From a phage: a stretch of 64,000 nt of DNA. Position numbers and translations under genes: made by a program. Location: NCBI GenBank assembly GCA_024571205.1, contig GCA_024571205.1_4523.1. One strand, 5' to 3'. A model generated the notes under the pieces. It was not told where the DNA came from. It searched no databases and saw nothing but the letters and a program-made list of their open reading frames with translations. How positions within the stretch are numbered: position 1 is the stretch's first letter; every line of letters begins with the position of its first letter. Below, piece by piece: positions 2,198 through 33,364 of this stretch.

Positions 2198-3096
2198 TGG
2201 CTATTTTCCGCGTACCAATCTTGAGTATGCGGTCTTATGAAACTGGACAGTATGCTATCCTTAAGGATGGCAACTTCCAACTTCATTTGCACCGTGCTAA
2301 TCCGGGTGATGTGATTACATATCCACGTAATGCATCTGATATTAAAGAATGCGAACGTCTTTTCCCAGAATTTAAGTTTGTTCCATTATGGTATAAAGAT
2401 AACGCGTATAACACTCGTAAATATTTCTGGACTGAAAATGAATTTGTGGTTGATTCATTAATTGATTATTATGATTGTGATTTTCTAATCACAGATATCA
2501 CTGGTTATGGCGGCGCTTTTGATGTAGAATTCAATTTCAATATCACTGCAGACCCTAATAAACCACGTTTTTATATTGACGAATTCTTAAAAACCGATAT
2601 GTTGTCAGTTAATCGTTCACTTCAAACTACCGTGTTGAATGAACGTCAAAAAGAAGTGCTGGTTAACGCAGGTGCAGATGGTAATAAGATTATCGTAACT
2701 CAGAAAGTTATACGTCCTTCCATCATGCAGCGTCTTGTAGGTGATTTGGCTCCTATTCATCTAGATGGTATTTTTCATCCATTTCGAATTAGTGACCCAT
2801 GTTATCGTTTTGAACAAGTGGTTGAATGTGCAATTCAATTAGGTCAACCGCTTTATATAACCGATCCAAATAATAGCTTCGACAGAAATAAGTATCCTGA
2901 AGAAGCGCTGATTCGAATTTTTAAACCAACTAAAACTGAGTACTATCAAATTCTTAAAGGACGCCCGAAGATTCAATATTTCGAAAATCCTGAAGAAGTA
3001 TTCCATCCAGGTCTTGGTGAGTTCATCTACTTTAATGCTTTAATTTCTTCACCATATAATATACCTAAATACGAAGATGTCGTAATCGAGGAATAA
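2197..3096 (+). CDS. hypothetical protein, 299 aa (in the slot where T4 has beta-glucosyltransferase)
   Basis: Start overlaps upstream stop (TAATG); no motif recognised. Confidence 0.6.
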   Translation: MAIFRVPILSMRSYETGQYAILKDGNFQLHLHRANPGDVITYPRNASDIKECERLFPEFKFVPLWYKDNAYNTRKYFWTENEFVVDSLIDYYDCDFLITDITGYGGAFDVEFNFNITADPNKPRFYIDEFLKTDMLSVNRSLQTTVLNERQKEVLVNAGADGNKIIVTQKVIRPSIMQRLVGDLAPIHLDGIFHPFRISDPCYRFEQVVECAIQLGQPLYITDPNNSFDRNKYPEEALIRIFKPTKTEYYQILKGRPKIQYFENPEEVFHPGLGEFIYFNALISSPYNIPKYEDVVIEE

Positions 3097-3097
3097 A

Positions 3098-3646
3098 ATG
3101 GCTAAAATTATTTTAGTAGACGGCCCAGATAATGCTGGTAAAACAACTTTCATTAATGACATAATGGAAATTAGTGAAAGATATGTAAAGATTGATTTTC
3201 CTAAACGAACAGTTGATGGACGTTTCGATGTTAAGTCTCGAAATGAAGTTGGCTGTTTCGAAACGATGTTGAATTATTTAGACCCTACTAAGATTTATCT
3301 GTTAGACCGTGGATATATTAGTAACTGGGTTTATGGACGTATTCGGCAAGATGCGGACTCTGTTCTTGATGTTTATGAACAGGACTATGTTCGTCTTTGC
3401 CAAAACCATGATGTGTTCACAATTATTTTAACACGTAATGAAATGACTGAAAGTTTTGAAGACGACCTTATTACTTTGTCTTCATTCGGTTTTAATACAG
3501 TCATTTCACATTTTGAAGAGTTTGCAATTCATAACAAAATCCAAACGTATCAATTACTTAATCATGATGGTGCTAACAAAATTATAGGATTTAATGCAAG
3601 CGAACGTAATGGTTTGATTACAGAAATCATCAAATGGGCTCGTTAA
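3098..3646 (+). CDS. P-loop kinase, thymidylate-kinase-like (nucleotide/nucleoside kinase family)
   Basis: Walker A GPDNAGKTT near N-terminus; LLDRGYISNWVYG resembles the TMPK DRx..S..Y motif; 182 aa. Confidence 0.6.
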   Translation: MAKIILVDGPDNAGKTTFINDIMEISERYVKIDFPKRTVDGRFDVKSRNEVGCFETMLNYLDPTKIYLLDRGYISNWVYGRIRQDADSVLDVYEQDYVRLCQNHDVFTIILTRNEMTESFEDDLITLSSFGFNTVISHFEEFAIHNKIQTYQLLNHDGANKIIGFNASERNGLITEIIKWAR

Positions 3647-3663
3647 GAGCCATTTAAAGTTTT

Positions 3664-3691
3664 AAATGCTGTATAACCCTTAGTATATAAT
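3664..3691 (+). promoter_or_regulatory. possible MotA-dependent middle promoter upstream of uvsX
   Basis: aaaTGCTgtA box about 12 nt upstream of -10 tatataat (3684-3691). Confidence 0.35.
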
Positions 3692-3744
3692 CGTCTTATC
3701 TTTTAAACATGAGTAAAATATAATGATGCCTATGGAAAAATACA

Positions 3745-4917
3745 ATGTCTGATTTAAAATCTCGTCTGATTAAAGCTTCTACTTCTAAAATGACTGCAGA
3801 CTTGACTAAGTCTAAGCTGTTTAATAATCGTGATGAAGTCCCTACTCGTATTCCGATGTTGAATATCGCACTAGGTGGTGCTCTGAATGCAGGATTGCAA
3901 TCAGGCTTAACTATTTTTGCTGCTCCTTCTAAACACTTTAAAACATTGTTTGGGCTGACTATGGTTGCAGCGTATATGAAGAAATATAAAGATGCAATCT
4001 GTTTGTTTTATGACTCGGAATTCGGTGCTTCAGAATCTTATTTTCGTTCAATGGGTGTTGATTTAGACCGTGTAGTTCATACTCCGATTCAATCTGTAGA
4101 ACAACTTAAAGTTGATATGACTAATCAGCTTGACGCTATTGAACGCGGTGATAAAGTTATTATCTTTATCGATTCAATCGGTAATACTGCATCTAAGAAA
4201 GAAACCGAAGATGCATTGAACGAGAAAGTCGTAGGTGATATGTCTCGTGCTAAGGCACTTAAATCTCTGTTCCGTATTGTGACTCCTTATCTGACTATTA
4301 AAGATATTCCGTGTGTTGCAATCAACCATACAGCAATGGAAATCGGCGGACTATATCCTAAAGAGATTATGGGTGGTGGTACAGGTATTCTTTACTCTGC
4401 TAACACTGTATTCTTTATCTCTAAACGTCAGGTTAAAGAAGGTACAGAATTGACCGGTTATGACTTCACGTTGAAAGCAGAAAAATCTCGTACAGTTAAA
4501 GAGAAATCTACTTTCCCAATCACGGTTAATTTTGACGGCGGTATCGATCCATTCAGTGGCTTGTTAGAAATGGCAACTGAAATTGGATTTGTTGTTAAGC
4601 CTAAAGCTGGTTGGTATGCTCGTGAATTCCTTGACGAAGAAACAGGTGAAATGATTCGTGAAGAGAAATCGTGGCGTGCTAAAGCTACTGATTGTGTAGA
4701 ATTCTGGGGACCGTTGTTTAAACACAAACCTTTCCGAGATGCAATTGAAACTAAATATAAACTAGGCGCTATCTCTTCTATTAAAGAAGTTGATGACGCT
4801 GTTAACGACCTTATTAATTGCAAAGCAACAACTAAAGTTCCGGTTAAAGCTTCTGATGCTCCGTCTGCAGCAGATATTGAAAACGACCTTGACGAAATGG
4901 AAGATTTCGATGAATAA
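3745..4917 (+). CDS. uvsX: UvsX RecA-like recombinase
   Basis: 390 aa; RecA-fold ATPase motifs and acidic C-terminal tail; T4 gene order uvsX-40-41. Confidence 0.92.
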   Translation: MSDLKSRLIKASTSKMTADLTKSKLFNNRDEVPTRIPMLNIALGGALNAGLQSGLTIFAAPSKHFKTLFGLTMVAAYMKKYKDAICLFYDSEFGASESYFRSMGVDLDRVVHTPIQSVEQLKVDMTNQLDAIERGDKVIIFIDSIGNTASKKETEDALNEKVVGDMSRAKALKSLFRIVTPYLTIKDIPCVAINHTAMEIGGLYPKEIMGGGTGILYSANTVFFISKRQVKEGTELTGYDFTLKAEKSRTVKEKSTFPITVNFDGGIDPFSGLLEMATEIGFVVKPKAGWYAREFLDEETGEMIREEKSWRAKATDCVEFWGPLFKHKPFRDAIETKYKLGAISSIKEVDDAVNDLINCKATTKVPVKASDAPSAADIENDLDEMEDFDE

Positions 4918-5251
4918 TCTCGATGATTTAAATCTAGAAATCGTTGATGAATCCCCTTCTTCGGAAGGGGAAGACATTCGCAAAGAACGAGTGTTTAATG
5001 AATCTCTTAAAATTATCCGTTCAGCAATGGAAAATGTCATTCAAGAGATTCTGATTACACTTGAAGATGGTTCTCATCATATAGTCTATATTACAAAACT
5101 AGACTGGGTTGATGGTAAAATCGTAATGGACTTTGCAGTTCTTGACCAGGACAGAAAAGCAGAACTTGCACCACATGTTGAAAAATGTGTTACAATGCAA
5201 GTACAACAAGCTTTTAATGAACGGACCAAGAAAAAATTTAAATTCTTTTAA
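4910..5251 (+). CDS. 40: gp40 head vertex assembly protein
   Basis: 113-aa ORF starting MNNLDD, overlaps uvsX stop by 8 nt; position between uvsX and 41. Confidence 0.6.
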   Translation: MNNLDDLNLEIVDESPSSEGEDIRKERVFNESLKIIRSAMENVIQEILITLEDGSHHIVYITKLDWVDGKIVMDFAVLDQDRKAELAPHVEKCVTMQVQQAFNERTKKKFKFF

Positions 5252-5260
5252 GGAGTTATC

Positions 5261-6703
5261 GTGGTAGAAATTATTTTGTCTCATCTAGTATATGACCAGG
5301 CTTATTTTTCTAAGGTCTGGCCTTATATGGATTCTGAGTATTTTGAGCGTGGACCGGCAAAAAATGTCTTTAAAATTATAAAGAGCCACGTTAACGAATA
5401 TAATGCAATGCCATCTATCAATGCATTAAAGGTGGCTTTAGATAACAGTTCTTTAACTGAAGCCGAATATAAAGGAACTTCGGACCTAATTGAAAAATTG
5501 GCTGATACTCCTGAAGACCACGAATGGTTGGTTAAAGAAACTGAGAAATATGTCCAGCAAAAAGCGATGTATAATGCTACATCCAAAATCATTGAGATTC
5601 AGTCTAATGCTGAACTACCTCCAGAACAACGTAACAAGAAAATGCCTGACGTAGGAGCTATTCCTGATATTATGCGTCAAGCACTTTCAATTTCGTTTGA
5701 TAGTTATGTTGGTCATGACTGGATGGAAGACTATGAAGCACGCTGGCTTTCTTATCTAAATAAAGCACGTAAGGTCCCGTTCAAATTAAACATTTTGAAT
5801 AAAATCACCAAAGGCGGTGCAGAAACAGGTACACTGAACGTTTTAATGGCCGGTGTTAACGTTGGTAAATCTTTAGGCCTTTGTTCACTTGCTGCAGATT
5901 ATCTTCAAACAGGACATAATGTTCTTTATATTTCCATGGAAATGGCTGAAGAAGTTTGTGCTAAGCGTATAGATGCAAACATGCTTGACGTATCACTCGA
6001 TGATATCGATGATGGTAATGTATCTTATGCTGAATATAAAGCCAAGATGGAAAAATGGCGTTCAAAATCAACATTAGGACGTTTAGTAGTCAAACAGTAT
6101 CCTACTGGTGGAGCTAATGCTAATACATTCCGTGCATTGCTTAATGAATTGAAACTCAAGAAGAACTTTGTGCCGTCTGTAATCATAGTCGATTACTTAG
6201 GTATTTGTGGGTCTTGTCGTATCAGAGTTTACACTGAAAATAGCTACACATTAGTTAAAGCTATCGCAGAAGAACTTCGTGCATTAGCAGTAGAATCTGA
6301 AACAGTTCTATGGACTGCAGCTCAAGTAGGACGTGCAGCATGGGATGCTTCAGACATGAACATGAGTGATATCGCAGAATCAGCAGGTTTACCAGCAACG
6401 GCAGATTTCATGTTGGCTGTAATTGAAACCGAAGAACTTGCACAAGCTGAACAACAACTTATCAAACAAATCAAATCACGATACGGTGATAAGAATAAGT
6501 GGAACAAGTTCTTGATGGGTGTACGTAAAGGCAATCAGAAATGGGTTGAGATTGAGCAAGAAGGCATGAACACACCTAACACGGTAAATGAAAACGCAGG
6601 TGCTCAGATGCGTCAGGCAGAGGTGAATCGCACGGAACGCGTAGGTAAAGCCAAAGCAACACGGGCGGACCTAGATAGCTTAGCCAATGAGTTAAAATTT
6701 TAA
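5261..6703 (+). CDS. 41: gp41 replicative DNA helicase (DnaB-like)
   Basis: GTG start after RBS AAGGAG; Walker A GVNVGKSLGL; N-terminus MVEIILSHL closely matches T4 gp41. Confidence 0.95.
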   Translation: MVEIILSHLVYDQAYFSKVWPYMDSEYFERGPAKNVFKIIKSHVNEYNAMPSINALKVALDNSSLTEAEYKGTSDLIEKLADTPEDHEWLVKETEKYVQQKAMYNATSKIIEIQSNAELPPEQRNKKMPDVGAIPDIMRQALSISFDSYVGHDWMEDYEARWLSYLNKARKVPFKLNILNKITKGGAETGTLNVLMAGVNVGKSLGLCSLAADYLQTGHNVLYISMEMAEEVCAKRIDANMLDVSLDDIDDGNVSYAEYKAKMEKWRSKSTLGRLVVKQYPTGGANANTFRALLNELKLKKNFVPSVIIVDYLGICGSCRIRVYTENSYTLVKAIAEELRALAVESETVLWTAAQVGRAAWDASDMNMSDIAESAGLPATADFMLAVIETEELAQAEQQLIKQIKSRYGDKNKWNKFLMGVRKGNQKWVEIEQEGMNTPNTVNENAGAQMRQAEVNRTERVGKAKATRADLDSLANELKF

Positions 6704-6706
6704 TAA

Positions 6707-6730
6707 AAAGGAGACTTCGGTCTCCTTTCG
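6707..6730 (+). terminator. intrinsic terminator hairpin (UUCG tetraloop)
   Basis: aaaGGAGACttcgGTCTCCttt directly after gene 41 stop. Confidence 0.6.
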
Positions 6731-6732
6731 GG

Positions 6733-6762
6733 GTTTACATCTTCCTCTAGGCATGATATGAT
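6733..6762 (+). promoter_or_regulatory. T4-early-type promoter
   Basis: GTTTAC at 6733, then tatgat -10 region; about 55 nt upstream of ATG 6792. Confidence 0.5.
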
Positions 6763-6791
6763 GAACTTACACCAACCAAGAGGAAAACATT

Positions 6792-7166
6792 ATGAATATG
6801 TCTCAAGCAATTTTTACTGCAATCACCGAAAACACAACTGTTGAAGTAGTTTCTCCACTGGCAACCTACGTTATTCTTGCTCCTAAAACTATTGTATCTC
6901 GTATGGAAAACATGGGCAAACGTATCGTACAAATAGTTGGAGCTGGAAATCAAAAACTTGATTATCTGCGAACCATCAAAGCTTATGAACATTTCCAACT
7001 CGAAAAAGGTTCTCCTATCCAGGTAGAACTCGTAAATGGTGATATCGTTCGAGCAATGTTCCATCATTTCTATGCATTGAATGACCCATCTAAAGCGGTT
7101 CGTTTAATTGCATACGACGCAAACCAAAACGAAATCAACGCAGATATATCTAAATTACGTTTTTAA
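6792..7166 (+). CDS. hypothetical protein, 124 aa
   Basis: ORF with RBS GAGGAAAA; first gene of the 41-61 variable region. Confidence 0.6.
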   Translation: MNMSQAIFTAITENTTVEVVSPLATYVILAPKTIVSRMENMGKRIVQIVGAGNQKLDYLRTIKAYEHFQLEKGSPIQVELVNGDIVRAMFHHFYALNDPSKAVRLIAYDANQNEINADISKLRF

Positions 7167-7195
7167 GTTTACTTCTCCAGTAGTTGTGTTATTAT
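7167..7195 (+). promoter_or_regulatory. T4-early-type promoter with flanking inverted repeat
   Basis: GTTTAC 7167-7172, 17-nt spacer, tattat 7190-7195; arms ttctccagtagttg (7173-7186) and caactactggagaa (7204-7217). Confidence 0.6.
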
Positions 7196-7221
7196 AGACC
7201 TATCAACTACTGGAGAACAAA

Positions 7222-7539
7222 ATGAAAACCATCGATTGTAAAGCAGAATTTAAGATTTTTTATCACGGTTCAAGTAGTTCAGCTAAAATCGAAAACATGC
7301 TTTGTCCTCCTGAAGAAACAGGAGTTCTGTCTGAAACCGGACGTAAGAAAAACTTGAATCGTGTATTCTTTACTGAAGATATCGGTTTAGCAAAGATTTA
7401 CGCAGGACGAGCAGCACGCTCTTATGGAGGTGAACCACGTCTCTATCGAGTAATTTCTCCGGTAGATGTAGTTCAAATGAATGATACTAAAGGTGCTAGC
7501 GTATACCACGCAACCTGGGCCTTCTGCGAGGAAATATGA
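7222..7539 (+). CDS. hypothetical protein, 105 aa
   Basis: ORF following a promoter; RBS GGAGAAC inside the downstream repeat arm. Confidence 0.6.
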   Translation: MKTIDCKAEFKIFYHGSSSSAKIENMLCPPEETGVLSETGRKKNLNRVFFTEDIGLAKIYAGRAARSYGGEPRLYRVISPVDVVQMNDTKGASVYHATWAFCEEI

Positions 7540-7748
7540 ACATTGTAGTATTTAAACCATCAACATACGAATTTGCATCAACTACACAATGGAAAGCTCT
7601 TATTCAGGAAGGATGGGAACTAATGATGGACTGCGAAGCATCTGAAAAGTTTCCACACGGCAAAGTGGACTTCGTTAAATTTGCTGTACGTCCGACCAAA
7701 CGTCAAATTCGTCAAGAAAAACGCAAATTTCGCAAAAGTTTAAAATAA
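7536..7748 (+). CDS. hypothetical protein, 70 aa, basic C-terminus
   Basis: ATGA overlap with upstream gene; C-terminal RQIRQEKRKFRKSLK. Confidence 0.5.
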   Translation: MNIVVFKPSTYEFASTTQWKALIQEGWELMMDCEASEKFPHGKVDFVKFAVRPTKRQIRQEKRKFRKSLK

Positions 7749-7750
7749 CC

Positions 7751-7780
7751 GTTTACAAGCACCACATACTGTGTTACTAT
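7751..7780 (+). promoter_or_regulatory. T4-early-type promoter
   Basis: GTTTAC 7751, 18-nt spacer, tactat 7775-7780; precedes ATG 7809. Confidence 0.6.
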
Positions 7781-7808
7781 CTTTCTATCAACTACAGAGG
7801 AAATTGAA

Positions 7809-8177
7809 ATGAAAAAATTAATCGCTTTAGCAATGGTATTCGGATTAACTGGATGTGGTGCTCATGGCTTTATTCCTAATAACGTAGGGCAACTGATTTA
7901 CAATCCAAATGTTAAACAGTATGAACAACCTAAAGTTGAAGTGGAAGACCCGGTTACTGTAGGTAATCGAATGATTCAAGCTGATGAACGTGCTCAAAGA
8001 TATCGTGACTCTGATACCGTAGCATTGTCAAAAGAACAACGTGTTCAAGAGCATTGTTTACAGGCCACTGAAATCGCATTTATTCGTTATGTTGAAACAA
8101 CAGGTAAAGAGCCTACTCAGCAACAAATCATGGCTAACTACGTCCAATGTATTGAACGTTTAAACAAATTTAATTAA
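7809..8177 (+). CDS. putative lipoprotein, 122 aa
   Basis: N-terminal signal peptide with lipobox LTGC. Confidence 0.65.
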   Translation: MKKLIALAMVFGLTGCGAHGFIPNNVGQLIYNPNVKQYEQPKVEVEDPVTVGNRMIQADERAQRYRDSDTVALSKEQRVQEHCLQATEIAFIRYVETTGKEPTQQQIMANYVQCIERLNKFN

Positions 8178-8180
8178 TTA

Positions 8181-8210
8181 GTTTACATCCAATTTAAAAC
8201 AAGATACTAT
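8181..8210 (+). promoter_or_regulatory. T4-early-type promoter
   Basis: GTTTAC 8181, 18-nt spacer, tactat 8205-8210; precedes ATG 8239. Confidence 0.6.
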
Positions 8211-8238
8211 AAACATATCAAATCAAGAGGAAATTATC

Positions 8239-8487
8239 ATGGAATTATTAGTAGTTAGTTCAGTAGCAGTTTTGATCGCAGGTATCGGTTCAATTATCAT
8301 TTACATGTTGCCTTGGGTTATCGCACTTATTCGTGGCACCAAAAGCACAACAGCAATCTTCTTCGTATCCTTACTCTTTAACTGGACGATGATTGGATGG
8401 ATTGGAACTTTAATTTGGTCTATCGCAGCAGAAAAGAAATCTGCCCAACAGACACAACAAGTAATTATTATTCGCGAAAAAGAATAA
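8239..8487 (+). CDS. small two-pass membrane protein, superinfection-immunity (Imm)-like
   Basis: 82 aa, two hydrophobic helices; motif YMLPWVIALIRG..IFFVSLLFNWTMIGWIGTLIWS resembles the Imm-type superinfection immunity family pattern as I recall it. Confidence 0.55.
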   Translation: MELLVVSSVAVLIAGIGSIIIYMLPWVIALIRGTKSTTAIFFVSLLFNWTMIGWIGTLIWSIAAEKKSAQQTQQVIIIREKE

Positions 8488-8491
8488 AACA

Positions 8492-8521
8492 GTTTACAAC
8501 GTTGATAGGTCATGTTACTAT
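8492..8521 (+). promoter_or_regulatory. T4-early-type promoter with flanking near-inverted repeat
   Basis: GTTTAC 8492, 18-nt spacer, tactat 8516-8521; arms gttgataggtc / gacttatcaac. Confidence 0.6.
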
Positions 8522-8548
8522 AGACTTATCAACTAATGGAGAACAAAA

Positions 8549-8707
8549 ATGAAACCTTCAAACTACGCAGTAAAAATTTGGAACGAAGTTAACGGTAATC
8601 GTGATGAATTTTTCAAAGTCATGATTGAGAAATTAGGTAAAAGTTTTAGCATTACAGAACGCAATTATTACGCTATTAAATCCACCCAATATAATCGTTA
8701 TGCTTAA
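8549..8707 (+). CDS. hypothetical protein, 52 aa
   Basis: Below the ORF-track cutoff; RBS GGAGAAC 7 nt before ATG; follows a promoter. Confidence 0.5.
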   Translation: MKPSNYAVKIWNEVNGNRDEFFKVMIEKLGKSFSITERNYYAIKSTQYNRYA

Positions 8708-8717
8708 GGAGAATATC

Positions 8718-9011
8718 ATGAAAAAGTTAACATTAGCAGCAATCTTACTAGCAGTGTCATGTGCACCAGCTCCAGTTACTGCCGGTTATGACAAAGACCT
8801 CTGTGAATGGTCAATGTCAGCAAATCAAGAAGATGTTGAACATCAAATCTTTGCCGATATCATGAACATCACTAAACGTGATCGCCCTAATATGGTTAAT
8901 AAAGTTGTAGAACAACTTCAGTCTGGTGGTATCATGCAGTACAACTATGTTTTGTATTGTGACCCTAATTTCGATAACAAAGATATCGTAACTGAAATCA
9001 CAGGTGAATAA
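8718..9011 (+). CDS. putative secreted protein or lipoprotein, 97 aa
   Basis: Start chosen at MKKLTL after RBS AAGGAG; signal peptide with AVSC lipobox-like cysteine. Confidence 0.6.
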   Translation: MKKLTLAAILLAVSCAPAPVTAGYDKDLCEWSMSANQEDVEHQIFADIMNITKRDRPNMVNKVVEQLQSGGIMQYNYVLYCDPNFDNKDIVTEITGE

Positions 9012-9663
9012 TATGATTTATTATATGCACAAAAATCCACCGTTTAAATACGGTAAATTTCCTGATGCACAATGTTATAATATAACGCCTGATGAAAATA
9101 ACCGTGGATATCTTATTGGCACAATTTTTGTAATTGTTAAAGATAACGAAATCGTTGCCTGGGCAGATTTTAAAGGTACAACACATGATGTTAATCCGGT
9201 GCCTTTCACATATTACAATATAATGGATTTGGCATACGATTATAATTGGTTTAATCATGACACGTTGGCTTATATTGAAGGTGTAGGATTTGATATCTCT
9301 TATTCTAGTTATTCATTATGTCCTATGAGCCGAGCACACGGTAAAGATACCTCATATTTTTCATTTAGGAAACGTGTGAACTTCAAACGTAGCACAGAGT
9401 ATGTCGGTGGAATATTTGTTAAAGATAATCGAATTACTCGTATTAGTTACCCTTTGAGCTGTGGCCAAAAAGATATTGACGTCGATTTAGACTTCACTGA
9501 AAATGTCATTAATCATATTGCTTCCGTATATTTTGACATCGATGAAAAAATTGTAGTGTGCGGTTACGAATTGCCACCGGAAGAAAAGATCGAAGCAATT
9601 GAAGTCGAATTAAAAGTTTCTATTGATGACCAAATCTTTAACGCATTTATGAATCGAGGTTAA
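9004..9663 (+). CDS. hypothetical protein, 219 aa
   Basis: Long ORF, AT-rich, no recognised motif. Confidence 0.6.
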   Translation: MNNMIYYMHKNPPFKYGKFPDAQCYNITPDENNRGYLIGTIFVIVKDNEIVAWADFKGTTHDVNPVPFTYYNIMDLAYDYNWFNHDTLAYIEGVGFDISYSSYSLCPMSRAHGKDTSYFSFRKRVNFKRSTEYVGGIFVKDNRITRISYPLSCGQKDIDVDLDFTENVINHIASVYFDIDEKIVVCGYELPPEEKIEAIEVELKVSIDDQIFNAFMNRG

Positions 9664-9664
9664 T

Positions 9665-9862
9665 ATGATTACTGCAACTTGTGCCGGCTCAAAAATTGAT
9701 GTGTTTCAATTGTTTGAAGAATATGAAATTGTTTCTAAGAACAAAGACTTTATTCAAGTTCGTGCTGACGATGGTACTGTCTGGAACATCCCCCATTATA
9801 ACGACGAGACCTATGAAGTCACAGATGCAAATGGTGACAAAGCAATCTTTGTGATTGATTAA
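9665..9862 (+). CDS. hypothetical protein, 65 aa
   Basis: Tightly packed downstream ORF (TAATATG junction). Confidence 0.5.
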   Translation: MITATCAGSKIDVFQLFEEYEIVSKNKDFIQVRADDGTVWNIPHYNDETYEVTDANGDKAIFVID

Positions 9863-9881
9863 ATATACTCAGGAGGTACCT

Positions 9882-10349
9882 ATGGGTATTATTAACACTG
9901 CAATAGATTCAGTTTATGCATATAAGTTTATTCGACTAATGCAAAAACCTTTTACCGAATGGAAAGCATACGAAGCCAAAATCATCGACGAACGTGGAAG
10001 TGTTCTTAAACGTCCTTCTACTCCTGAAGAGAAAGCGGCTTATACACCTTTCCATGCTTCAGTTCGTTCAATGAAACGAATGTTGAGCACTGTTCCCGGT
10101 CTTAATGGAATGGCCTCAATGATGTCCGCCTGGAGTGCTGTAGCATCCCGCTATAACATCACAGAAGAACAACAGAAAGAAATATTTAAAGAACTCCCTT
10201 TATTTGAGGATATGGTTGCTGGTGATTCAGGTGGCAGTCCTCAAGCTATTGCATCAGGAACTACTACAGGTGCAGTTGTAAATAAAGGTCCAGAACAAAT
10301 TCCTTCCAAGAAAAGAAAGCGAATTAAAGTAAATATCAATAAGTTGTGA
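9882..10349 (+). CDS. hypothetical protein, 155 aa
   Basis: Start moved to ATG 9882, which follows RBS AGGAGG; basic C-terminus KKRKRIK. Confidence 0.55.
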   Translation: MGIINTAIDSVYAYKFIRLMQKPFTEWKAYEAKIIDERGSVLKRPSTPEEKAAYTPFHASVRSMKRMLSTVPGLNGMASMMSAWSAVASRYNITEEQQKEIFKELPLFEDMVAGDSGGSPQAIASGTTTGAVVNKGPEQIPSKKRKRIKVNINKL

Positions 10350-10356
10350 TATGATG

Positions 10357-10376
10357 GCCTTATTAATTTAAGGCCT
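10357..10376 (+). promoter_or_regulatory. stem-loop immediately upstream of the gene 61 RBS
   Basis: GGCCTTA-ttaatt-TAAGGCC, then tctGGAGaatactATG. Confidence 0.4.
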
Positions 10377-10388
10377 CTGGAGAATACT

Positions 10389-11411
10389 ATGGCTGAATGG
10401 ATAGATAATGAATTTGCTTATCGTGCGTTTTCTCACCTACCTCGTTTTAGACAAATCAATAATTCAAGCACATTTAAATTAACGTTTCGTTGTCCAGTTT
10501 GTGGCGACTCTCAGACAGATGCAATGAAAGCCCGCGGATGGTATTATGGCGGTACTCCAGGTAATGTGCATTGCTATAACTGTCAATATCATAATACGAT
10601 TTCCGGATACTTAAAAGAGTATGACGAAGAGCTTTATCGTGAATATCTAATGGAAGTTCGTAAAGAAAAAGCTAGAATGGAACCAAAGATTGAAAAGGTT
10701 CCTGAACATAAACCAGAACCGGAGAAAAAGACTATAAATTCTTTGCCGTCTTGTTCTCGTCTGGACAAGTTGCCTGAAGAGCATCCTATTGTGAAATATG
10801 TTAAGTCTCGGTGTATTCCTAAAGAATCGTGGAACAGATTATGGTTCACATTAGAATGGCCTAAATTGGTCAACAAGATTCAACCAGGCACGTATAAGAA
10901 AGAGATTCCAGAACCGCGTTTAGTGATTCCTATTTTTAATAAAGACGGGAAGGCTGAGTCATTTCAAGGACGTGCACTTCGCAAAGATGCTCCTCAGAAA
11001 TATATAACTATTAAAGCGTTTGAGTCTGCAACAAAAATTTATGGTGTTGAACGTGTTAAGGAAGGAGACGTCTGGGTAATGGAAGGCCCTATTGATAGTT
11101 TATTCATACCCAATGCAATCGCTATTACAGGCGGTTCAATAGATTTAGATGTGGTACCATTTAAAGAACGTCGGGTATGGGTGATGGATAATGAACCTAG
11201 GCATCCGGATACTATAGCTCGTATGAAGCGATTAGTAGATGCAGGCGAACGTGTTATGTTCTGGGACCGAGCTCCATGGAGTTCAAAGGATGTGAATGAT
11301 ATGGTAATGAAAGAAAATGCAACACCACAAGAAATTTTAGAATATATGAAACAGAATATTTCAAGTGGGTTGCATGCTAAAATGAGATTATCTCGTTATT
11401 CGAAGATTTAA
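10389..11411 (+). CDS. 61: gp61 DNA primase
   Basis: N-terminal zinc ribbon CPVCGDS..CYNC and TOPRIM-like C-terminal part; strong match to recalled T4 gp61. Confidence 0.9.
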   Translation: MAEWIDNEFAYRAFSHLPRFRQINNSSTFKLTFRCPVCGDSQTDAMKARGWYYGGTPGNVHCYNCQYHNTISGYLKEYDEELYREYLMEVRKEKARMEPKIEKVPEHKPEPEKKTINSLPSCSRLDKLPEEHPIVKYVKSRCIPKESWNRLWFTLEWPKLVNKIQPGTYKKEIPEPRLVIPIFNKDGKAESFQGRALRKDAPQKYITIKAFESATKIYGVERVKEGDVWVMEGPIDSLFIPNAIAITGGSIDLDVVPFKERRVWVMDNEPRHPDTIARMKRLVDAGERVMFWDRAPWSSKDVNDMVMKENATPQEILEYMKQNISSGLHAKMRLSRYSKI

Positions 11412-11605
11412 ACAAGCCCTATAATAGCAAAGGCCAAATCAACTACAGTATCCAATGGAACAGAAGGAACTATAATACCATGGGCAACTAACAATGGTGC
11501 AATCCCGAAGTTCCATGAAATAATGCCACCTACAACTATTGCGGCGATAGCAGTTTTCTTTTTATTGCCTTTAATAGCGTTGATTAACGATGGAAGTTTA
11601 AACAT
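11408..11605 (-). CDS. small hydrophobic membrane protein, 65 aa, convergent with gene 61
   Basis: Minus-strand ORF with strong RBS (taAGGAGatatt-ATG); two hydrophobic segments; LPSLINAIKGNKKK motif loosely Imm-like. Confidence 0.5.
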   Translation of the reverse strand: MFKLPSLINAIKGNKKKTAIAAIVVGGIISWNFGIAPLLVAHGIIVPSVPLDTVVDLAFAIIGLV

Positions 11606-11693
11606 AATATCTCCTTAGTTACCTATTATTTATTACGCTTTATAAAATTAATGTTAGAATTAACTCTCTTATACTGAATTGAAAGGAAAAATA

Positions 11694-12215
11694 ATGGCGC
11701 ACTTTAATGAATGTTCACAACTTATTTCTGGTGTTGATAAAGCAGAAGAAGCTTATTTTAATGCTCTGATTCACGAAGATAAAGACCCACTGCAGGTAAT
11801 GCTTGATATGCAGAAATCTTTACAGGTTCGTCTGGCAAATGACAAGCCTGAACATAACAAACATCCTGATGAATTGGCTACTGCTGGTGATGTTGTTGAT
11901 TGGCTGCGTAATCAGAAAGATTATATTGATGATGAATTCCGTGAACTGCTGACTTCACTTGGTGGTATGAGCAATGGTGAAAAAGCCGCTAGCAGTGTAT
12001 GGAAGCCATGGAAAGCACAACATGCTGAATATCGAAATCGTCGTATCGATGAACTGTCTCCTGAAGACCAGCTTGAAATTAAATTTGAAATGATTGATAT
12101 TCTGCATTTCGTTCTAAATATGTTCCAAGGTCTTGGTCTTTCTGCTGAAGAAATCTTTAAACTTTACTACTTGAAAAACCAACACAACTTTGAACGTCAG
12201 GATAATGGTTACTAA
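11694..12215 (+). CDS. 56: gp56 dCTPase/dUTPase (dCTP pyrophosphatase)
   Basis: MAHFNEC start after RBS AGGAAA; MazG-like motifs; matches recalled T4 gp56. Confidence 0.85.
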   Translation: MAHFNECSQLISGVDKAEEAYFNALIHEDKDPLQVMLDMQKSLQVRLANDKPEHNKHPDELATAGDVVDWLRNQKDYIDDEFRELLTSLGGMSNGEKAASSVWKPWKAQHAEYRNRRIDELSPEDQLEIKFEMIDILHFVLNMFQGLGLSAEEIFKLYYLKNQHNFERQDNGY

Positions 12216-12221
12216 TTAAGT

Positions 12222-12229
12222 TATAAATA
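12222..12229 (+). promoter_or_regulatory. late promoter TATAAATA upstream of soc
   Basis: Exact TATAAATA about 30 nt upstream of soc ATG. Confidence 0.5.
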
Positions 12230-12260
12230 CACCTGTAATTAAACAACAAAGGAGTTAATT

Positions 12261-12497
12261 ATGGGTGGTTATGTAAACATCAAAACCTTTACGCATCCTG
12301 CTGGTGAAGGCAAAGAAGTTAAAGGTATGGAAGTTTCTGTTCCGTTTGAGATTTATTCAAACGAACATCGGATTGCAGATTCTCATTATCAGACTTTCCC
12401 GTCTGAAAAAGCTGCTTACACTACTGTGGTGACTGACGCAGCAGATTGGCGTACTAAGAACGCTGCAATGTTTACCCCTACACCAGTAAGTGGTTAA
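12261..12497 (+). CDS. soc: Soc small outer capsid protein
   Basis: 78 aa; YVNIKTF..HYQTFPSEKAAYTTV matches recalled T4 Soc. Confidence 0.8.
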   Translation: MGGYVNIKTFTHPAGEGKEVKGMEVSVPFEIYSNEHRIADSHYQTFPSEKAAYTTVVTDAADWRTKNAAMFTPTPVSG

Positions 12498-12505
12498 ATA
12501 ATTTA

Positions 12506-12531
12506 AGGAATCCTTCGGGATTCCTTTTTTC
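12506..12531 (+). terminator. intrinsic terminator (UUCG tetraloop)
   Basis: AGGAATCCttcgGGATTCCT followed by TTTTTT. Confidence 0.75.
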
Positions 12532-12540
12532 GTTTCTAGA

Positions 12541-12570
12541 GTTTACATCCACTAAAAACTATGTTAAGAT
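12541..12570 (+). promoter_or_regulatory. T4-early-type promoter
   Basis: GTTTAC 12541, 18-nt spacer, taagat; precedes ATG 12599. Confidence 0.55.
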
Positions 12571-12598
12571 ATTCTTACTTACTCAAGAGGAGAACATT

Positions 12599-12826
12599 AT
12601 GTTAAATCGTTGGATTAAACCTAATAACACATTAGGCGCTTTGATTGCACAAGAAGTTTCGTTGAAATACGGACTTGGATATTATGATGACGTAGTCGTA
12701 CACTCATTCATGATGGATGGTGAAGACGTCAAATTTAATGCCGAAATCCGTTGGGATGATGGTGGTGTTCGTTTTGTTCGAGGAACAATTAATGCTTACG
12801 ATACTGAAGAAGTTATTTGCTGTTAA
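12599..12826 (+). CDS. hypothetical protein, 75 aa
   Basis: RBS GAGGAGAA; follows a promoter. Confidence 0.55.
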   Translation: MLNRWIKPNNTLGALIAQEVSLKYGLGYYDDVVVHSFMMDGEDVKFNAEIRWDDGGVRFVRGTINAYDTEEVICC

Positions 12827-12839
12827 ACCAGGCGAAGGT

Positions 12840-13028
12840 ATGATGCCTATTCCTGATACACACGAAAAAAGTTGGGAATACATTGGTGACGGCATGATGG
12901 AAGAAGTTATTCGTCCTAAGTCTGCTTCAAGCTCTTCAAGTTATAATCATTCATACGTATCGTCTTGGCCTGGTGATTCCGGGTCAAGTTATTCTGATTG
13001 TGGTTCAAGCTCAGGGAGCTGCGAATGA
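12840..13028 (+). CDS. hypothetical Ser-rich small protein, 62 aa
   Basis: Start trimmed to ATG 12840 (the track N-extension overlaps the previous gene); C-terminus SASSSSSYNHSYVSS..GSSSGSCE. Confidence 0.45.
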   Translation: MMPIPDTHEKSWEYIGDGMMEEVIRPKSASSSSSYNHSYVSSWPGDSGSSYSDCGSSSGSCE

Positions 13029-13204
13029 ACAAGATAGTTAAATGGTTTAAAAGCTGGGACGATGGTGTCGGTCCAGAAGATTGGTTAGATGTTCTTGAAG
13101 AGAATATGGCTAAAGAATTCCAGAAACATGAAGAAAAGCTCGTCGAAGATGAAGGCGAACGTATTGTAAAACTTTATATGGGTGAACCATCGAGGAAATT
13201 ATAA
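13025..13204 (+). CDS. hypothetical protein, 59 aa
   Basis: ATGA overlap with upstream stop; start MNKIVKWFK. Confidence 0.45.
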   Translation: MNKIVKWFKSWDDGVGPEDWLDVLEENMAKEFQKHEEKLVEDEGERIVKLYMGEPSRKL

Positions 13205-13668
13205 TGGATGCTATGTTATTTAAAATGTATTTGCTTGAAGCCAAGTCATTTAAACATATACCAGTAGAAGATAAGACTCCACTAGAAATAGCTATTCTCA
13301 TTAACAAAAGTCTAAATAATCCGCAATATATCGTAGAAGAATTCTGCAAATTGCAGATTCCTAAAGGTTACAAAATTCGTGTAGAGCGAGTTGGAGCTAT
13401 TACTCATTCTAAAAATTCTCCGTTTAGTCTTGAAGAAGGCATAAAGGACTTAGGTTATGAATCTACAGAAAATGCTGTTTATGTGAATCCTGAAAAGCGT
13501 TTAGACCTGTTTGAAAAGCGAGACCATACGTATTTTGCCAAAAAATACTTTATTACATCATTAGCAGATTTAATCCATTTGCAACGAGCTATTTGGAAAT
13601 TTTTTAAGACAAAAGGTGTAGCACTAGAAACATTCTCTGAACCTGCTAGTTTTTATTTAGGTGAATAA
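13204..13668 (+). CDS. hypothetical protein, 154 aa
   Basis: ORF in a tightly coupled array. Confidence 0.6.
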   Translation: MDAMLFKMYLLEAKSFKHIPVEDKTPLEIAILINKSLNNPQYIVEEFCKLQIPKGYKIRVERVGAITHSKNSPFSLEEGIKDLGYESTENAVYVNPEKRLDLFEKRDHTYFAKKYFITSLADLIHLQRAIWKFFKTKGVALETFSEPASFYLGE

Positions 13669-13849
13669 TATGGACCTTATGAGTATGTTTGATGAGCCTG
13701 AAGTCAAGGCTCCTAAAGTGCATCATAGTGAACTTGTTGATGAACTAGATAGTATTATACAACGACACGGCTTTAGTTTACCTGTTGAAGCCCTGAAAGA
13801 CCTTGCCTCTTATTATGACGACCCTCCACCATGGAGTCCTTGGAAATGA
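13661..13849 (+). CDS. hypothetical protein, 62 aa
   Basis: Overlaps upstream stop; acidic. Confidence 0.45.
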   Translation: MNNMDLMSMFDEPEVKAPKVHHSELVDELDSIIQRHGFSLPVEALKDLASYYDDPPPWSPWK

Positions 13850-14010
13850 AAGAGAAATTTAAAGAGAAATTCTTACTAGAAATCAAGGAAAAAGACTTTG
13901 AGACATGGTATCGAATGGTGAAAGGGTTAACATTGCTTTTTAAAGCATCGTTATTCATGTTAGAACAACCTGGCCCTGATGGACCTTTAGTAGGAAAGCT
14001 TAAAAAGTAG
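13846..14010 (+). CDS. hypothetical protein, 54 aa
   Basis: ATGA overlap; below the ORF-track cutoff. Confidence 0.4.
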   Translation: MKEKFKEKFLLEIKEKDFETWYRMVKGLTLLFKASLFMLEQPGPDGPLVGKLKK

Positions 14011-14038
14011 TTTACATTCCCTCCTCTCGTGTTATGAT
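14010..14038 (+). promoter_or_regulatory. T4-early-type promoter
   Basis: GTTTAC 14010, 17-nt spacer, tatgat 14033-14038; precedes ATG 14066. Confidence 0.55.
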
Positions 14039-14065
14039 AGGCTTATCTTTAAATGGAGGTCTATC

Positions 14066-14647
14066 ATGACATGTCAATCTGAACTTCAAGAACGCGAATA
14101 TCTCGCAGCACTAATTGATGATAAATTCACTAAACAAGAACAAAACATTCTCTGGGCTTGCACTGATTATAAGGAAGACCCAGATTTCCACTATGAATTA
14201 GACCGTCTTGTTCGTAAGCATATGACTTCTACAGTACCAGTAGAACTCTACCGTGGTGTAACTCCAGAAGAAGTAGAACATCTTTCATTGTTATCTGTAG
14301 GATGCCATTGGTCTCCTGGACGAGTAACATCGTTTACAACAGACTTTGGTACGGCCAGACAGTTCTCTGGGAGTTGGGAATATCAAACGTACACTATTCT
14401 TAGTCTCAGGAATGCTCCGTTCATTTTCGATTACTACCAAAACATGGTTAACATTGTACTCGCCGGAAAGAACCCTAAGCATGTTATGGAAGAAAAACGT
14501 GTTGACGTCCTAGATATGATTGAATCTGAACAAGAATACATGGTCTCAGGTATCTCTAGATTTGAGATTGTAGAAATTGAAGACTTAGAATATGACCCTT
14601 TATCTCGGTTATACAAAATCATTCATTTGAAAATGTTGAATTTTTAG
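14066..14647 (+). CDS. Mod-type ADP-ribosyltransferase (R-S-E class), 193 aa
   Basis: R (ELYRGV), S-x-T (TSFTT) and E-x-E (EQEYMVSG) motifs; tandem paralog follows, as with T4 modB/modA. Confidence 0.75.
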   Translation: MTCQSELQEREYLAALIDDKFTKQEQNILWACTDYKEDPDFHYELDRLVRKHMTSTVPVELYRGVTPEEVEHLSLLSVGCHWSPGRVTSFTTDFGTARQFSGSWEYQTYTILSLRNAPFIFDYYQNMVNIVLAGKNPKHVMEEKRVDVLDMIESEQEYMVSGISRFEIVEIEDLEYDPLSRLYKIIHLKMLNF

Positions 14648-14676
14648 TGTACAAACTCTTCCGATGATGATACTAT
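14647..14676 (+). promoter_or_regulatory. T4-early-type promoter (GTGTAC variant)
   Basis: gtgtac, 18-nt spacer, tactat; precedes ATG 14705. Confidence 0.5.
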
Positions 14677-14704
14677 ACCTTTATCAACCACAGGAGAAAC
14701 CTAA

Positions 14705-15313
14705 ATGTTTATGCCGTATAACGAGTGTGAAATTGAAGAAATGGTTCGTCGTGCTCAATGCCCTGAATATCAAGATGAATTGCAGTACGAAATTGATAGT
14801 CAATTCAGCGACATTGAACAAAGTGTACTATGGCAGTGTATGGAAAACAAGCCTGATAGCATCCAACAAGATTTAAGTGCAATTGTTCGTAGAAATTGGA
14901 CGTCTTCTGTTCCTGAGACAATGTATCGTGGAATCTCTAAGAAAACTATGGCCACACTCGATGATAAAGGCATTGGTAGTATTATTAAATTTGACAGAGT
15001 AATGAGCTTTAGTCCAGTGTTCGGTGTAGCACGTAACTTTGCTTCGTATAATTTTTACGGAACATTTAATATGTTCTGCATCAAAGATGCACCATTTGCT
15101 TTCAACTTCCGTGAACATATGCTTAACATGATTCTGGCTGCGCCATCTTGTGAGTTCAATGGAGCTTTCCCTGAAGCGACAAGACGGTCTAATGCTAGAC
15201 TTATATCTGACGAATGTGAATTTATGCTCCCTATAGGGACTACACTGCGTGTAGATTCTATTATTCAAGATGGAAATTATACAATCTGGAATCTGTCTAT
15301 TGTCGGTTACTGA
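14705..15313 (+). CDS. Mod-type ADP-ribosyltransferase (R-S-E class), 202 aa
   Basis: TMYRGIS, MSFSP, ECEFMLP motifs; paralog of 14066-14647. Confidence 0.75.
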   Translation: MFMPYNECEIEEMVRRAQCPEYQDELQYEIDSQFSDIEQSVLWQCMENKPDSIQQDLSAIVRRNWTSSVPETMYRGISKKTMATLDDKGIGSIIKFDRVMSFSPVFGVARNFASYNFYGTFNMFCIKDAPFAFNFREHMLNMILAAPSCEFNGAFPEATRRSNARLISDECEFMLPIGTTLRVDSIIQDGNYTIWNLSIVGY

Positions 15314-32345: not shown

Positions 32346-32374
32346 GTTTACATGTGCTTCAAACATGATATTAT
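32346..32374 (+). promoter_or_regulatory. T4-early-type promoter
   Basis: GTTTAC 32346, 17-nt spacer, tattat 32369-32374; conserved leader atagacctatcaa. Confidence 0.6.
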
Positions 32375-32413
32375 AGACCTATCAAAACAAAACAGCCAAA
32401 TTGGAGAAATAAA

Positions 32414-32629
32414 ATGTCTAAAATGAAATTAACCCAAAACACAACTACTCGTTTCGGTAAAGTTAAACCTGGTATGAATGCTCTCCGTAAAGCACTTGTT
32501 GAAGAATTAAATTTCTTAGAAGTTGAAATCAATTCTTTAGTGGTTCGCGGTTCAAATGGACATCATTTAGAAAAGCTTCGTTCTAAAAAGGCAAAACTTA
32601 TTAGCCTTATTAAAGAAATGAGTTTGTAA
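32414..32629 (+). CDS. hypothetical protein, 71 aa
   Basis: RBS TGGAGAAATAA; follows a promoter. Confidence 0.55.
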   Translation: MSKMKLTQNTTTRFGKVKPGMNALRKALVEELNFLEVEINSLVVRGSNGHHLEKLRSKKAKLISLIKEMSL

Positions 32630-32666
32630 ATTTTACCAGGGCTTTTGAAAAAGAGCCCAAAATAAA

Positions 32667-32695
32667 GTTTACTTTTGCTTCAAACATGATATTAT
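32667..32695 (+). promoter_or_regulatory. T4-early-type promoter
   Basis: GTTTAC 32667, 17-nt spacer, tattat 32690-32695; leader nearly identical to 32346 promoter. Confidence 0.6.
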
Positions 32696-32731
32696 AGACC
32701 TATCAAACAAATACTAATTTGGAGAAATAAA

Positions 32732-33364
32732 ATGTCTAAAGTTACTTACATCATCAAAGCTTCTGAAAACGCTCTGAATGAAAAAACTGCTGCAATAATG
32801 GTTTATATCATTAAGAACAACTTCACCACTGCTGCCAATGTCCGTGAAGCTCTGAAAGCGGAATACAATGCATCGGTTGTTAACTCTAACATTGGTGTAT
32901 TGATTAAGAAAGGTTTAGTCGAAAAATCCGGTGATGGACTTGTGGCAACCGGCGAAGCAATGGATATTATCCAAAAAGCTGCAGACCTCTTTGCCCAAGA
33001 AAATGCTCCAGAACTTCTTCAGAAACGTAACACCAGAAAAGCACGTGGAGTTACTCCTGAAATGCATGAATTAGCAAACTTTGTTTTTGAAAATATTAAA
33101 GATAAAGTTGAAGTTAAAGAAATCGGTGAAAACCGTAGTAACTTAGAAGTTCGATTCGCTAAACGAGTTCTAGGCATTCGCCAAATTGAAATTCGACGAG
33201 ATGGCGCTCTTAGAATCTTTGCATACAACATGTCAGAAACTGAATCAAAGCTGTTTACTTCTCTTGAAAATGATGTTAAGATTAAGATCGGTGGTAAATA
33301 TACTTACATTGACTTCCCTAATGTGTCTAAAGAAATCATTACCCTTGTAACTAACGTACTGTGA
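32732..33364 (+). CDS. motA: MotA middle-transcription activator
   Basis: 210 aa; MSKVTYIIKAS..SNIGVLIKKGLVEKSGDGL matches recalled T4 MotA. Confidence 0.85.
   Translation: MSKVTYIIKASENALNEKTAAIMVYIIKNNFTTAANVREALKAEYNASVVNSNIGVLIKKGLVEKSGDGLVATGEAMDIIQKAADLFAQENAPELLQKRNTRKARGVTPEMHELANFVFENIKDKVEVKEIGENRSNLEVRFAKRVLGIRQIEIRRDGALRIFAYNMSETESKLFTSLENDVKIKIGGKYTYIDFPNVSKEIITLVTNVL

Follow-up and report, generated by a model that had tools for sequence, protein, structure and literature searches.

What fills the interval between gene 41, for the replicative helicase, and gene 61, for the primase, in an RB69-like phage, and are its small genes novel anti-defence factors or members of a known cluster? 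The question is raised by contig GCA_024571205.1_4523.1 of GenBank assembly GCA_024571205.1, from which a 64-kb stretch of one phage (the window) was analysed. Its locus of about 3.7 kb on the plus strand (6704-10388) carries ten plus-strand open reading frames (ORFs) of 52-216 codons, flanked by genes 41 and 61 (Table 1). A first-pass annotation, made by a model from the letters alone, had called the locus a hyperplastic region packed with small secreted, membrane and orphan proteins that were prime candidates for uncharacterised anti-defence or exclusion functions. Our analysis gives a more specific answer: the locus is very probably the RB69-type version of the accessory early-gene cluster of T-even phages, with its toxin-inhibitor and superinfection-exclusion genes, from which dmd has been lost and into which a promoter-ORF cassette has been inserted.

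Gene content of the helicase-primase interval

About 130 RB69-like genomes (genus Mosigvirus) share 92-93% DNA identity with the interval across 94% of its length, and its synteny with RB69 and phage moskry holds gene by gene. By sequence, the window belongs to this genus of RB69-like phages. Of the ten ORFs, nine are orthologous to annotated RB69 genes, the exception being the 52-codon ORF at 8549-8707. Five products, AdfA, Spackle, Imm, TifA (DUF7279) and Imm.1 (DUF5481), passed the curated Pfam cut-offs. No NCBIfam family was over its curated cut-off for any ORF (the sole listed match, 17 bits against a 329-bit cut-off, is spurious), and a sequence-level search of solved structures (PDB) gave no match for TifA, AdfA, 61.1 or the profile of the ORF040c family.

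The first of the characterised genes is tifA. TifA inhibits the ToxN endoribonuclease of toxIN, and its RB69 form is the more potent (Srikant, Guegler and Laub, PMC9391042). It traps ToxN on RNA; K55A R56A R59A is an RNA-binding mutant, and residue 41 tunes the potency (Guegler et al., PMC10853763). His41 is the interface residue of the potent RB69 form, while K55, R56 and R59 make up the basic RNA-binding cluster (PMC10853763). The window protein is 94% identical to RB69 TifA, and in the alignment H41, K55, R56 and R59 are all kept; it would be expected to trap ToxN-like RNases on RNA. T4 TifA differs from this form: it has a C-terminal extension and 85 amino acids (aa) in all, and shares 56% identity with the RB69 protein (PMC9391042).

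The match of AdfA (anti-DarT factor A) spans positions 1-211 of the 211 in the PF23813 profile, and ATG at 9013 is a more likely start than GTG at 9004. Wild-type RB69 AdfA, with Arg164, fails against DarT1; the escape change R164H leads to DarT1 binding, and most T-even phages have His at this position (PMC11257639). According to the alignment and a check of the codon, the triplet at 9514-9516, which corresponds to RB69 position 164, is CAT (His) in the window and CGT (Arg) in RB69 and moskry. The window AdfA carries the same His164 by which RB69 escapes when DarTG1 selects against it, and with this residue it would bind and neutralise DarT1-like DNA ADP-ribosyltransferases.

Imm and Spackle are the exclusion genes of the locus. 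Against secondary T-even phages, the two block entry of the DNA and the action of lysozyme. This role in exclusion of superinfecting T-even phages is also given in the RB69 record. The window Imm is 94% identical to RB69 Imm and has two hydrophobic segments (1-34 and 40-59). Spackle has an N-terminal hydrophobic segment (4-24), and the mature T4 chain (7cn6_A) aligns from residue 23. Spackle is, as judged from these features, a periplasmic protein with a cleavable signal peptide, and Imm the inner-membrane protein of superinfection immunity. The lipoprotein alternative for 8718-9011 was rejected on the same alignment. Imm in the inner membrane and Spackle in the periplasm would therefore be predicted to exclude superinfecting T-even phages.

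Five intergenic gaps of 55-88 nucleotides (nt) each hold one match to the T4 early-type promoter GTTTAC-N17/18-TAnnAT, and the remaining junctions are tight, with an ATGA overlap of 4 nt at 7536-7539 and gaps of 10, 1, 1 and 19 nt. Across the window there are 19 such promoter matches, every one on the plus strand, against 0.73 expected from shuffled sequences; five of the 19 lie inside the locus. When the five promoter gaps are aligned, 22 positions are invariant, among them those of the −35 and −10 elements, the TATCAAC leader and the Shine-Dalgarno sequence. A composite of stem-loop and promoter is found only in the first gap (6710-6762), whereas the other four have a promoter and no obvious hairpin. 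No RNA element was found in the window by Rfam or tRNA scans. The five sigma-70-type promoters would be read by host RNA polymerase immediately after infection and would define five early units: (1) ORF041c; (2) ORF040c, which encodes a putative ADP-ribosyltransferase (ART), with tifA; (3) imm.1; (4) imm; and (5) the 52-aa ORF, sp, adfA, ORF033c and 61.1. Unit 5 would probably read through into gene 61. Elsewhere in the window, three more matches fall within 1 kb (32346, 32667 and 33253), and the region 32346-33282 is probably another hyperplastic region of small early genes.

These results bear out much of what the first-pass annotation had proposed. Its ten short ORFs, each with an early promoter of its own or tightly coupled, are there as described, with five promoters and five tight junctions; TifA, AdfA, Imm and Spackle are the anti-defence and superinfection-exclusion functions that it expected of a hyperplastic early region. 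The ORF at 7809-8177, proposed as a lipoprotein, has a lipobox, and the Imm-like two-pass protein at 8239-8487 is Imm itself. For the product of 8718-9011, called secreted or a lipoprotein, only the former holds. Similarly, the locus does encode secreted and membrane proteins but is hardly packed with them, since only three of the ten products have signal or transmembrane segments. The label of orphan has to be dropped for all four ORFs to which it was given: 9004-9663 is AdfA, and the ORFs at 7222-7539, 9882-10349 and 6792-7166 recur in 610 phage records, 1474 phage records and 133 Mosigvirus records respectively. As uncharacterised candidates, TifA, AdfA, Imm and Spackle have to be taken off the list, while ORF041c, ORF040c, Imm.1, ORF033c and 61.1 stay on it. 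The locus is nevertheless not made up wholly of orthologues of characterised genes, since the ORF at 8549-8707 is extra and absent from all related phages. This only rare ORF of the interval had not been singled out, and the loss of dmd and the cassette had also been missed.

Table 1. Positions of genes, predicted promoters and other features in and beside the interval (window coordinates). Identity is that of the protein to RB69 or moskry.
Feature	Coordinates	Strand	Identity	Description and evidence
Gene 41 (gp41)	5261-6703	+	99-100%	helicase
Hairpin	6710..6725	+		GGAGAC-TTCG-GTCTCC followed by TTT; just 3' of gene 41 stop, upstream of P1
Predicted early promoter P1	6733..6762	+		GTTTACA-N17-TATGAT; ahead of ORF041c
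ORF041c orthologue	6792..7166	+	99-100%	124 aa, soluble; 100% aa identity to RB69 and moskry; phrog_10668, E 3e-86
Predicted early promoter P2	7167..7195	+		consensus match; ahead of ART-tifA operon
ORF040c orthologue (ART)	7222..7539	+	94-96%	105 aa; predicted minimal ART fold, 'p0068-like', H-Y-[EDQ] clade
dmd-less junction	7533..7550	+		BLAST and MAFFT against RB69 and moskry
tifA (gene 61.4)	7536..7748	+	94-96%	70 aa; Pfam DUF7279 (PF23945), 73.5 bits vs 24.5 cut-off, E 1.3e-20
Predicted early promoter P3	7751..7780	+		consensus match; ahead of imm.1
imm.1	7809..8177	+	94-96%	122 aa, DUF5481; Pfam PF17578, E 1.3e-9; RB69 annotation
Predicted early promoter P4	8181..8210	+		consensus match; ahead of imm
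imm	8239..8487	+	94-96%	82 aa; Pfam PF14373, 57.3 bits vs 27.9 cut-off, E 1.4e-15; phrog_1039
Predicted early promoter P5	8492-8521	+		consensus match; cassette promoter ahead of 52-aa ORF
Inserted cassette	8499..8704	+		206 bp for 40 bp of RB69, between imm and sp; comparison with RB69
52-aa ORF	8549..8707	+		basic, soluble; predicted three-helix bundle, pLDDT (predicted local distance difference test) 85.7
sp (spackle)	8718..9011	+	94-96%	97 aa; Pfam PF25676, E 7.5e-42; PDB 6x6o 'Protein spackle', E 6.5e-39
adfA (gene 61.2)	9013..9663 (from 9004 with GTG start)	+	88-89%	216 aa; Pfam PF23813, 414.6 bits vs 27 cut-off, E 8e-125
ORF033c orthologue	9665..9862	+	66%	65 aa, acidic; phrog_3249; translationally coupled to adfA
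Long gene 61.1	9882..10349	+	99-100%	155 aa; phrog_2086, E 1.7e-73; 99% identical to moskry
Gene 61 (gp61)	10389-11411	+	99-100%	primase

Loss of dmd and the adjacent predicted ADP-ribosyltransferase gene

The first-pass annotation had named dmd among the genes of the corresponding T4 interval. In the window it is absent. About 198 bp of RB69, holding dmd (63 aa), are missing at 7542/7548, and the order ART-dmd-tifA of RB69, with overlapping or adjacent stop and start codons, is replaced by ART-tifA, in which the ART stop overlaps the tifA start (ATGA, 7536-7539). At this junction tifA has the same GAGGAAAT Shine-Dalgarno sequence as in RB69. The clean removal of dmd would have left tifA translationally coupled to the ART gene. 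In searches of the window, tblastn with RB69 Dmd and an approximate T4 Dmd sequence gave a best E value of 3.5, and a Dmd profile built from 12 sequences gave a best E value of 2.5 against all 1223 ORFs of at least 25 aa. The junction was not found in other phages either: megablast with 81 nt of it yielded no spanning match in 50,697 records, and an exact 38-mer had no match in IMG/VR. Complete RefSeq E. coli assemblies, searched for the whole genome so as to look for dmd there, gave no match.

Codons 2-4 of the window tifA read NIV, against YST in RB69. Since proteins beginning with MNIV are seen in other natural T4-like tifA alleles, the junction looks evolved rather than like a recent collapse; for the same reason, the idea that the TifA N-terminus is a Dmd-TifA fusion created by a microhomology deletion was rejected. 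Dmd is an antitoxin that acts on the RNase LsoA as well as on the RNase RnlA. A phage without Dmd is therefore predicted to be restricted by rnlAB or lsoAB hosts, and a dmd-less Mosigvirus predicts a host-range cost on such strains. We infer that the phage would resist ToxIN-like and DarTG1-like systems and be sensitive to RnlAB or LsoAB hosts, unless another gene compensates.

The gene now joined to tifA encodes the orthologue of RB69 ORF040c. In the predicted structure, the product has an ART fold with the split beta-sheet core. H15-G16, Y60 and E103, candidates for the catalytic residues (His in an HG motif, an aromatic residue and a C-terminal acidic one), are invariant in 44 homologues, and the window copy keeps every one of the family's 24 invariant positions, H15 and E103 among them. 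The family has already been predicted as a 'p0068-family ART' (Iyer et al. 2022, PMC9503650). It occurs in 610 phage records at 60-98% protein identity, among them 116 of Klebsiella, 68 of Acinetobacter and 62 of Aeromonas phages, and in Vibrio phages too. Arr, the ART domain of Tpt1/KptA and AcrIF11 are all longer than the 105 aa of ORF040c (Arr 140, AcrF11 137), and none has a significant sequence match to it. AcrIF11 is an anti-defence ART, and serves here as an analogy only. By this analogy it is possible, and we propose it tentatively, that ORF040c is an active free-standing ART, the smallest known, acting as an early anti-defence or host-takeover enzyme like AcrIF11 and not as a toxin restrained by Dmd. 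Such a mini-ART would modify a host or defence target using NAD+. If this is true, the window, in which the ART is intact, dmd is gone and tifA is coupled to the ART gene, is a natural genotype that separates the conserved mini-ART from its proposed antitoxin. A weaker addition to this proposal is that the 52-aa protein may be a new inhibitor making up for the lost Dmd. As a side observation, two adjacent genes with Pfam Mod_ADP_RT matches (ModA/ModB-type) lie about 4 kb past gene 61, from 14066-14647 on (11518-12159 of the Logan contig described below); together with ORF040c, the window would thus encode at least three ART-fold proteins.

The restrained-toxin alternative is that ORF040c and Dmd form a phage type II toxin-antitoxin pair, and that the loss of dmd leaves the toxin unopposed, in which case the ART would have to be attenuated (for instance by C85Q) or held in check by a new partner such as the 52-aa protein. 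A 'p0068-family ART toxin + Dmd antitoxin' was indeed predicted in Escherichia, Shigella and Salmonella phages (Iyer et al. 2022, PMC9503650). In RB69-like and Dhakavirus-like loci dmd directly follows the ART gene with overlapping stop and start codons; the window ART has Gln at position 85 (7474-7476), where Cys is found in at least 90% of the 44 diverse family members; and one and the same genome has lost dmd and gained the 52-aa ORF. However, obligate adjacency was not observed when 65 ART loci (62 from IMG/VR, with RB69, moskry and the window) were searched for Dmd within 2.5 kb. Dmd is downstream of the ART gene in only 12 of them, at least 24 unrelated genes fill that position elsewhere, and 53 loci have no detectable Dmd within this distance. 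The genus ranges also differ: Dmd, in 799 phage records, was detected only in phages of Escherichia, Shigella, Yersinia, Salmonella and Citrobacter type (tblastn may miss divergent short Dmd sequences), whereas the ART is also common in phages of Klebsiella, Acinetobacter, Aeromonas and Vibrio. In T4, dmd-tifA is present and the ART is not (PMC9391042), and the window keeps the 24 invariant ART positions without dmd. In addition, Dmd already has a demonstrated host target in RnlA, which it inhibits (PMC9391042), and the 52-aa ORF belongs to a separate transcription unit about 1 kb away. In most T4-like genera the ART is present and Dmd is not; the locus counts, the genus ranges, T4 and the window together favour the view that Dmd and the ART are merely neighbours in the early operons of some lineages. 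The toxin-antitoxin idea is therefore weakened, and we regard it as unlikely.

The inserted cassette and the remaining genes

The second departure from RB69 lies between imm and sp. With the inserted cassette come the 52-aa ORF and another early promoter (8492-8521); the own promoter of sp is displaced, and sp now lies 10 nt downstream of the ORF. Only the promoter/leader part of the cassette DNA matches other T4-like phages. The genes of this region are flanked by near-identical early-promoter/leader cassettes, and recombination between these would most likely have produced the swap.

No family in PHROG, Pfam or NCBIfam takes in the 52-aa protein. When 1.84 billion representative proteins were searched exhaustively with phmmer, three real relatives came up, of 51-53 aa and with 45-57% identity; the single long match, P0125 (941 aa), is repetitive and was set aside as spurious. 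NCBI also has the protein on a 168-kb contig from an 'E. coli' assembly (locus tag NRQ48_RS14895). In the phage collection, homologues of at most 54% identity are present in 16 T4-like genomes of about 140-173 kb. In vB_EcoM_RZ (Gaprivervirus), the one inspected of the 16, the homologue lies between denB and ndd among small early genes. Four further homologues are in phages of 46-48 kb, of which phage C1, a Deseoctovirus siphophage of 46 kb, was inspected; here the gene is in the early region next to a helicase gene. Nineteen residues are invariant in the family, including GKSF and the C-terminal YNRYA. The 52-aa ORF is thus very likely a real gene, and its presence in two unrelated phage groups points to horizontal movement. 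A specific fold was not assigned, as the structure search returned only generic three-helix, helix-turn-helix/homeodomain-like matches.

Could the 52-aa protein replace Dmd, or be some other new anti-defence factor gained as a mobile promoter-ORF cassette? The gene has a strong early promoter and Shine-Dalgarno sequence of its own within an anti-defence island, its 19 invariant residues are conserved across two unrelated phage groups in which it lies among small early genes, and its arrival coincides with the loss of dmd. But the protein does not resemble Dmd, the window search with the Dmd profile was negative, and nothing ties the 52-aa protein to any defence system. Among the Gaprivervirus carriers, moreover, Yersinia phage vB_YenM_P8 has both the homologue and dmd, which argues that the two genes are not alternatives. 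We therefore consider this explanation quite improbable.

The remaining genes differ widely in distribution and conservation. ORF041c is confined to Mosigvirus (found in 135 phage records, in 133 with at least 95% identity). Imm.1, with the lipobox LTG|C and an N-terminal hydrophobic segment (4-22), would be an envelope lipoprotein. The 61.1 family has members in 1474 phage records. The long form, present at full length in 589 of these, is conserved throughout the Straboviridae, phages of Acinetobacter, Klebsiella and Vibrio among them; T4-type phages retain only its C-terminal 46 or so residues. ORF033c is the most diverged gene of the interval, 66% identical to both RB69 and moskry and at most 71% to any of 271 phage records. 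Genes 2 kb away on either side are 99-100% identical, so that ORF033c and AdfA (88-89%) form a sharp peak of divergence. This peak suggests diversifying selection or allele replacement beside the anti-DarT gene, and ongoing selection. Together with the ART family, the fast-diverging ORF033c beside adfA is the best remaining target for discovery of function in the interval.

Two further observations concern the surroundings of gene 61. A hairpin, GGCCTTA-TTAATT-TAAGGCC (10356-10375), lies within the 39 nt that separate 61.1 from the primase gene, just 5' of the gene 61 Shine-Dalgarno sequence, and may be an RNA-processing or translational control element. The sole minus-strand gene nearby is a hydrophobic ORF of 65 aa at 11408-11605, the end of which overlaps the gene 61 stop; it corresponds to RB69ORF029w.

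Several points weigh against the reading of the locus as a whole, namely a functional RB69-type cluster without dmd. Every function assigned here is predicted from orthology or from a predicted fold, and promoter activity and operon structure are predicted from the consensus. The AdfA of the window is only 88-89% identical to that of RB69; residues besides 164 may matter, and T4 AdfA has no major role in T4's own DarTG1 resistance (PMC11257639). Among curated families the ART reached only Pfam Arr-ms, at 13.8 bits against a 25-bit cut-off (E 0.07), and its profile matched no solved ART among PDB sequences. The gene arrangement is known from one source phage only, and about 104 kb of the genome of about 168 kb lie outside the window and could hold dmd. 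These last two points are also what supports the weakest of the alternatives, that dmd is missing only through an error of assembly or consensus, or has moved elsewhere in the genome: a Logan contig (SRR20718339), 100% identical to window 2549-14707, may stem from the same reads, but the gene called on that contig has the same structure, the junction is clean and in frame with its ATGA overlap and tifA Shine-Dalgarno sequence, the flanks are diverged on both sides (NIV for YST) as in an evolved state rather than a collapsed repeat, and every T-even record examined carries dmd at this locus only, so that we give this alternative the least credence of all.

The RB69-type cluster thus remains the preferred reading. 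What is new in it is the loss of dmd, the swap of a promoter-ORF cassette and AdfA His164, all in a single phage; the remainder of the locus is largely known.

Comparison with known systems

The hyperplastic regions of T4-type phages are known for PeSLs, mobile promoter cassettes made up of a promoter and a stem-loop (Arbiol et al. 2010; Comeau et al. 2014; PMC2839356, PMC4122927). The likeness of the locus to them is in the near-identical promoter/leader cassettes that flank single small ORFs, and in the indel relative to RB69, which begins and ends inside promoter cassettes. The difference is that a stem-loop is evident here only at 6710-6725.

RB69 itself (RB69p041-p031) has the same order and orientation of ORF041c, ORF040c, 61.4, imm.1, imm, sp, 61.2, ORF033c and 61.1, between gp41 and gp61 that are 99-100% identical, and the same early-promoter gaps. 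The window differs from it in being without dmd and in having the 206-bp cassette, with its new promoter and 52-aa ORF, in place of the sp promoter. Further differences are His164 in place of Arg164 in AdfA, ORF033c with its 66% identity, and 61.1, which is one ORF of 155 aa in the window as in moskry, while RB69 annotates two (ORF032c and 61.1).

In T4, imm and imm.1 presumably sit between genes 42 and 43. In the RB69 record the two genes are annotated by similarity to T4 proteins whose accessions are outside the T4 run of dmd, 61.4, sp, 61.2 and 61.1. That homologous T4 region has been proposed as an 'anti-TA island' (TA, toxin-antitoxin), and its remaining genes were called attractive antitoxin candidates (Srikant et al. 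2022, PMC9391042). The island (dmd-tifA-sp-adfA-61.1) and the locus described here have the helicase-primase position, tifA, adfA, sp and early promoters in common. In T4, dmd is the promoter-proximal gene of the tifA operon and there is no ART, whereas in the window the ART gene stands in that place. The likeness extends to the way in which the two loci would have evolved, that is, by microhomology or cassette recombination.

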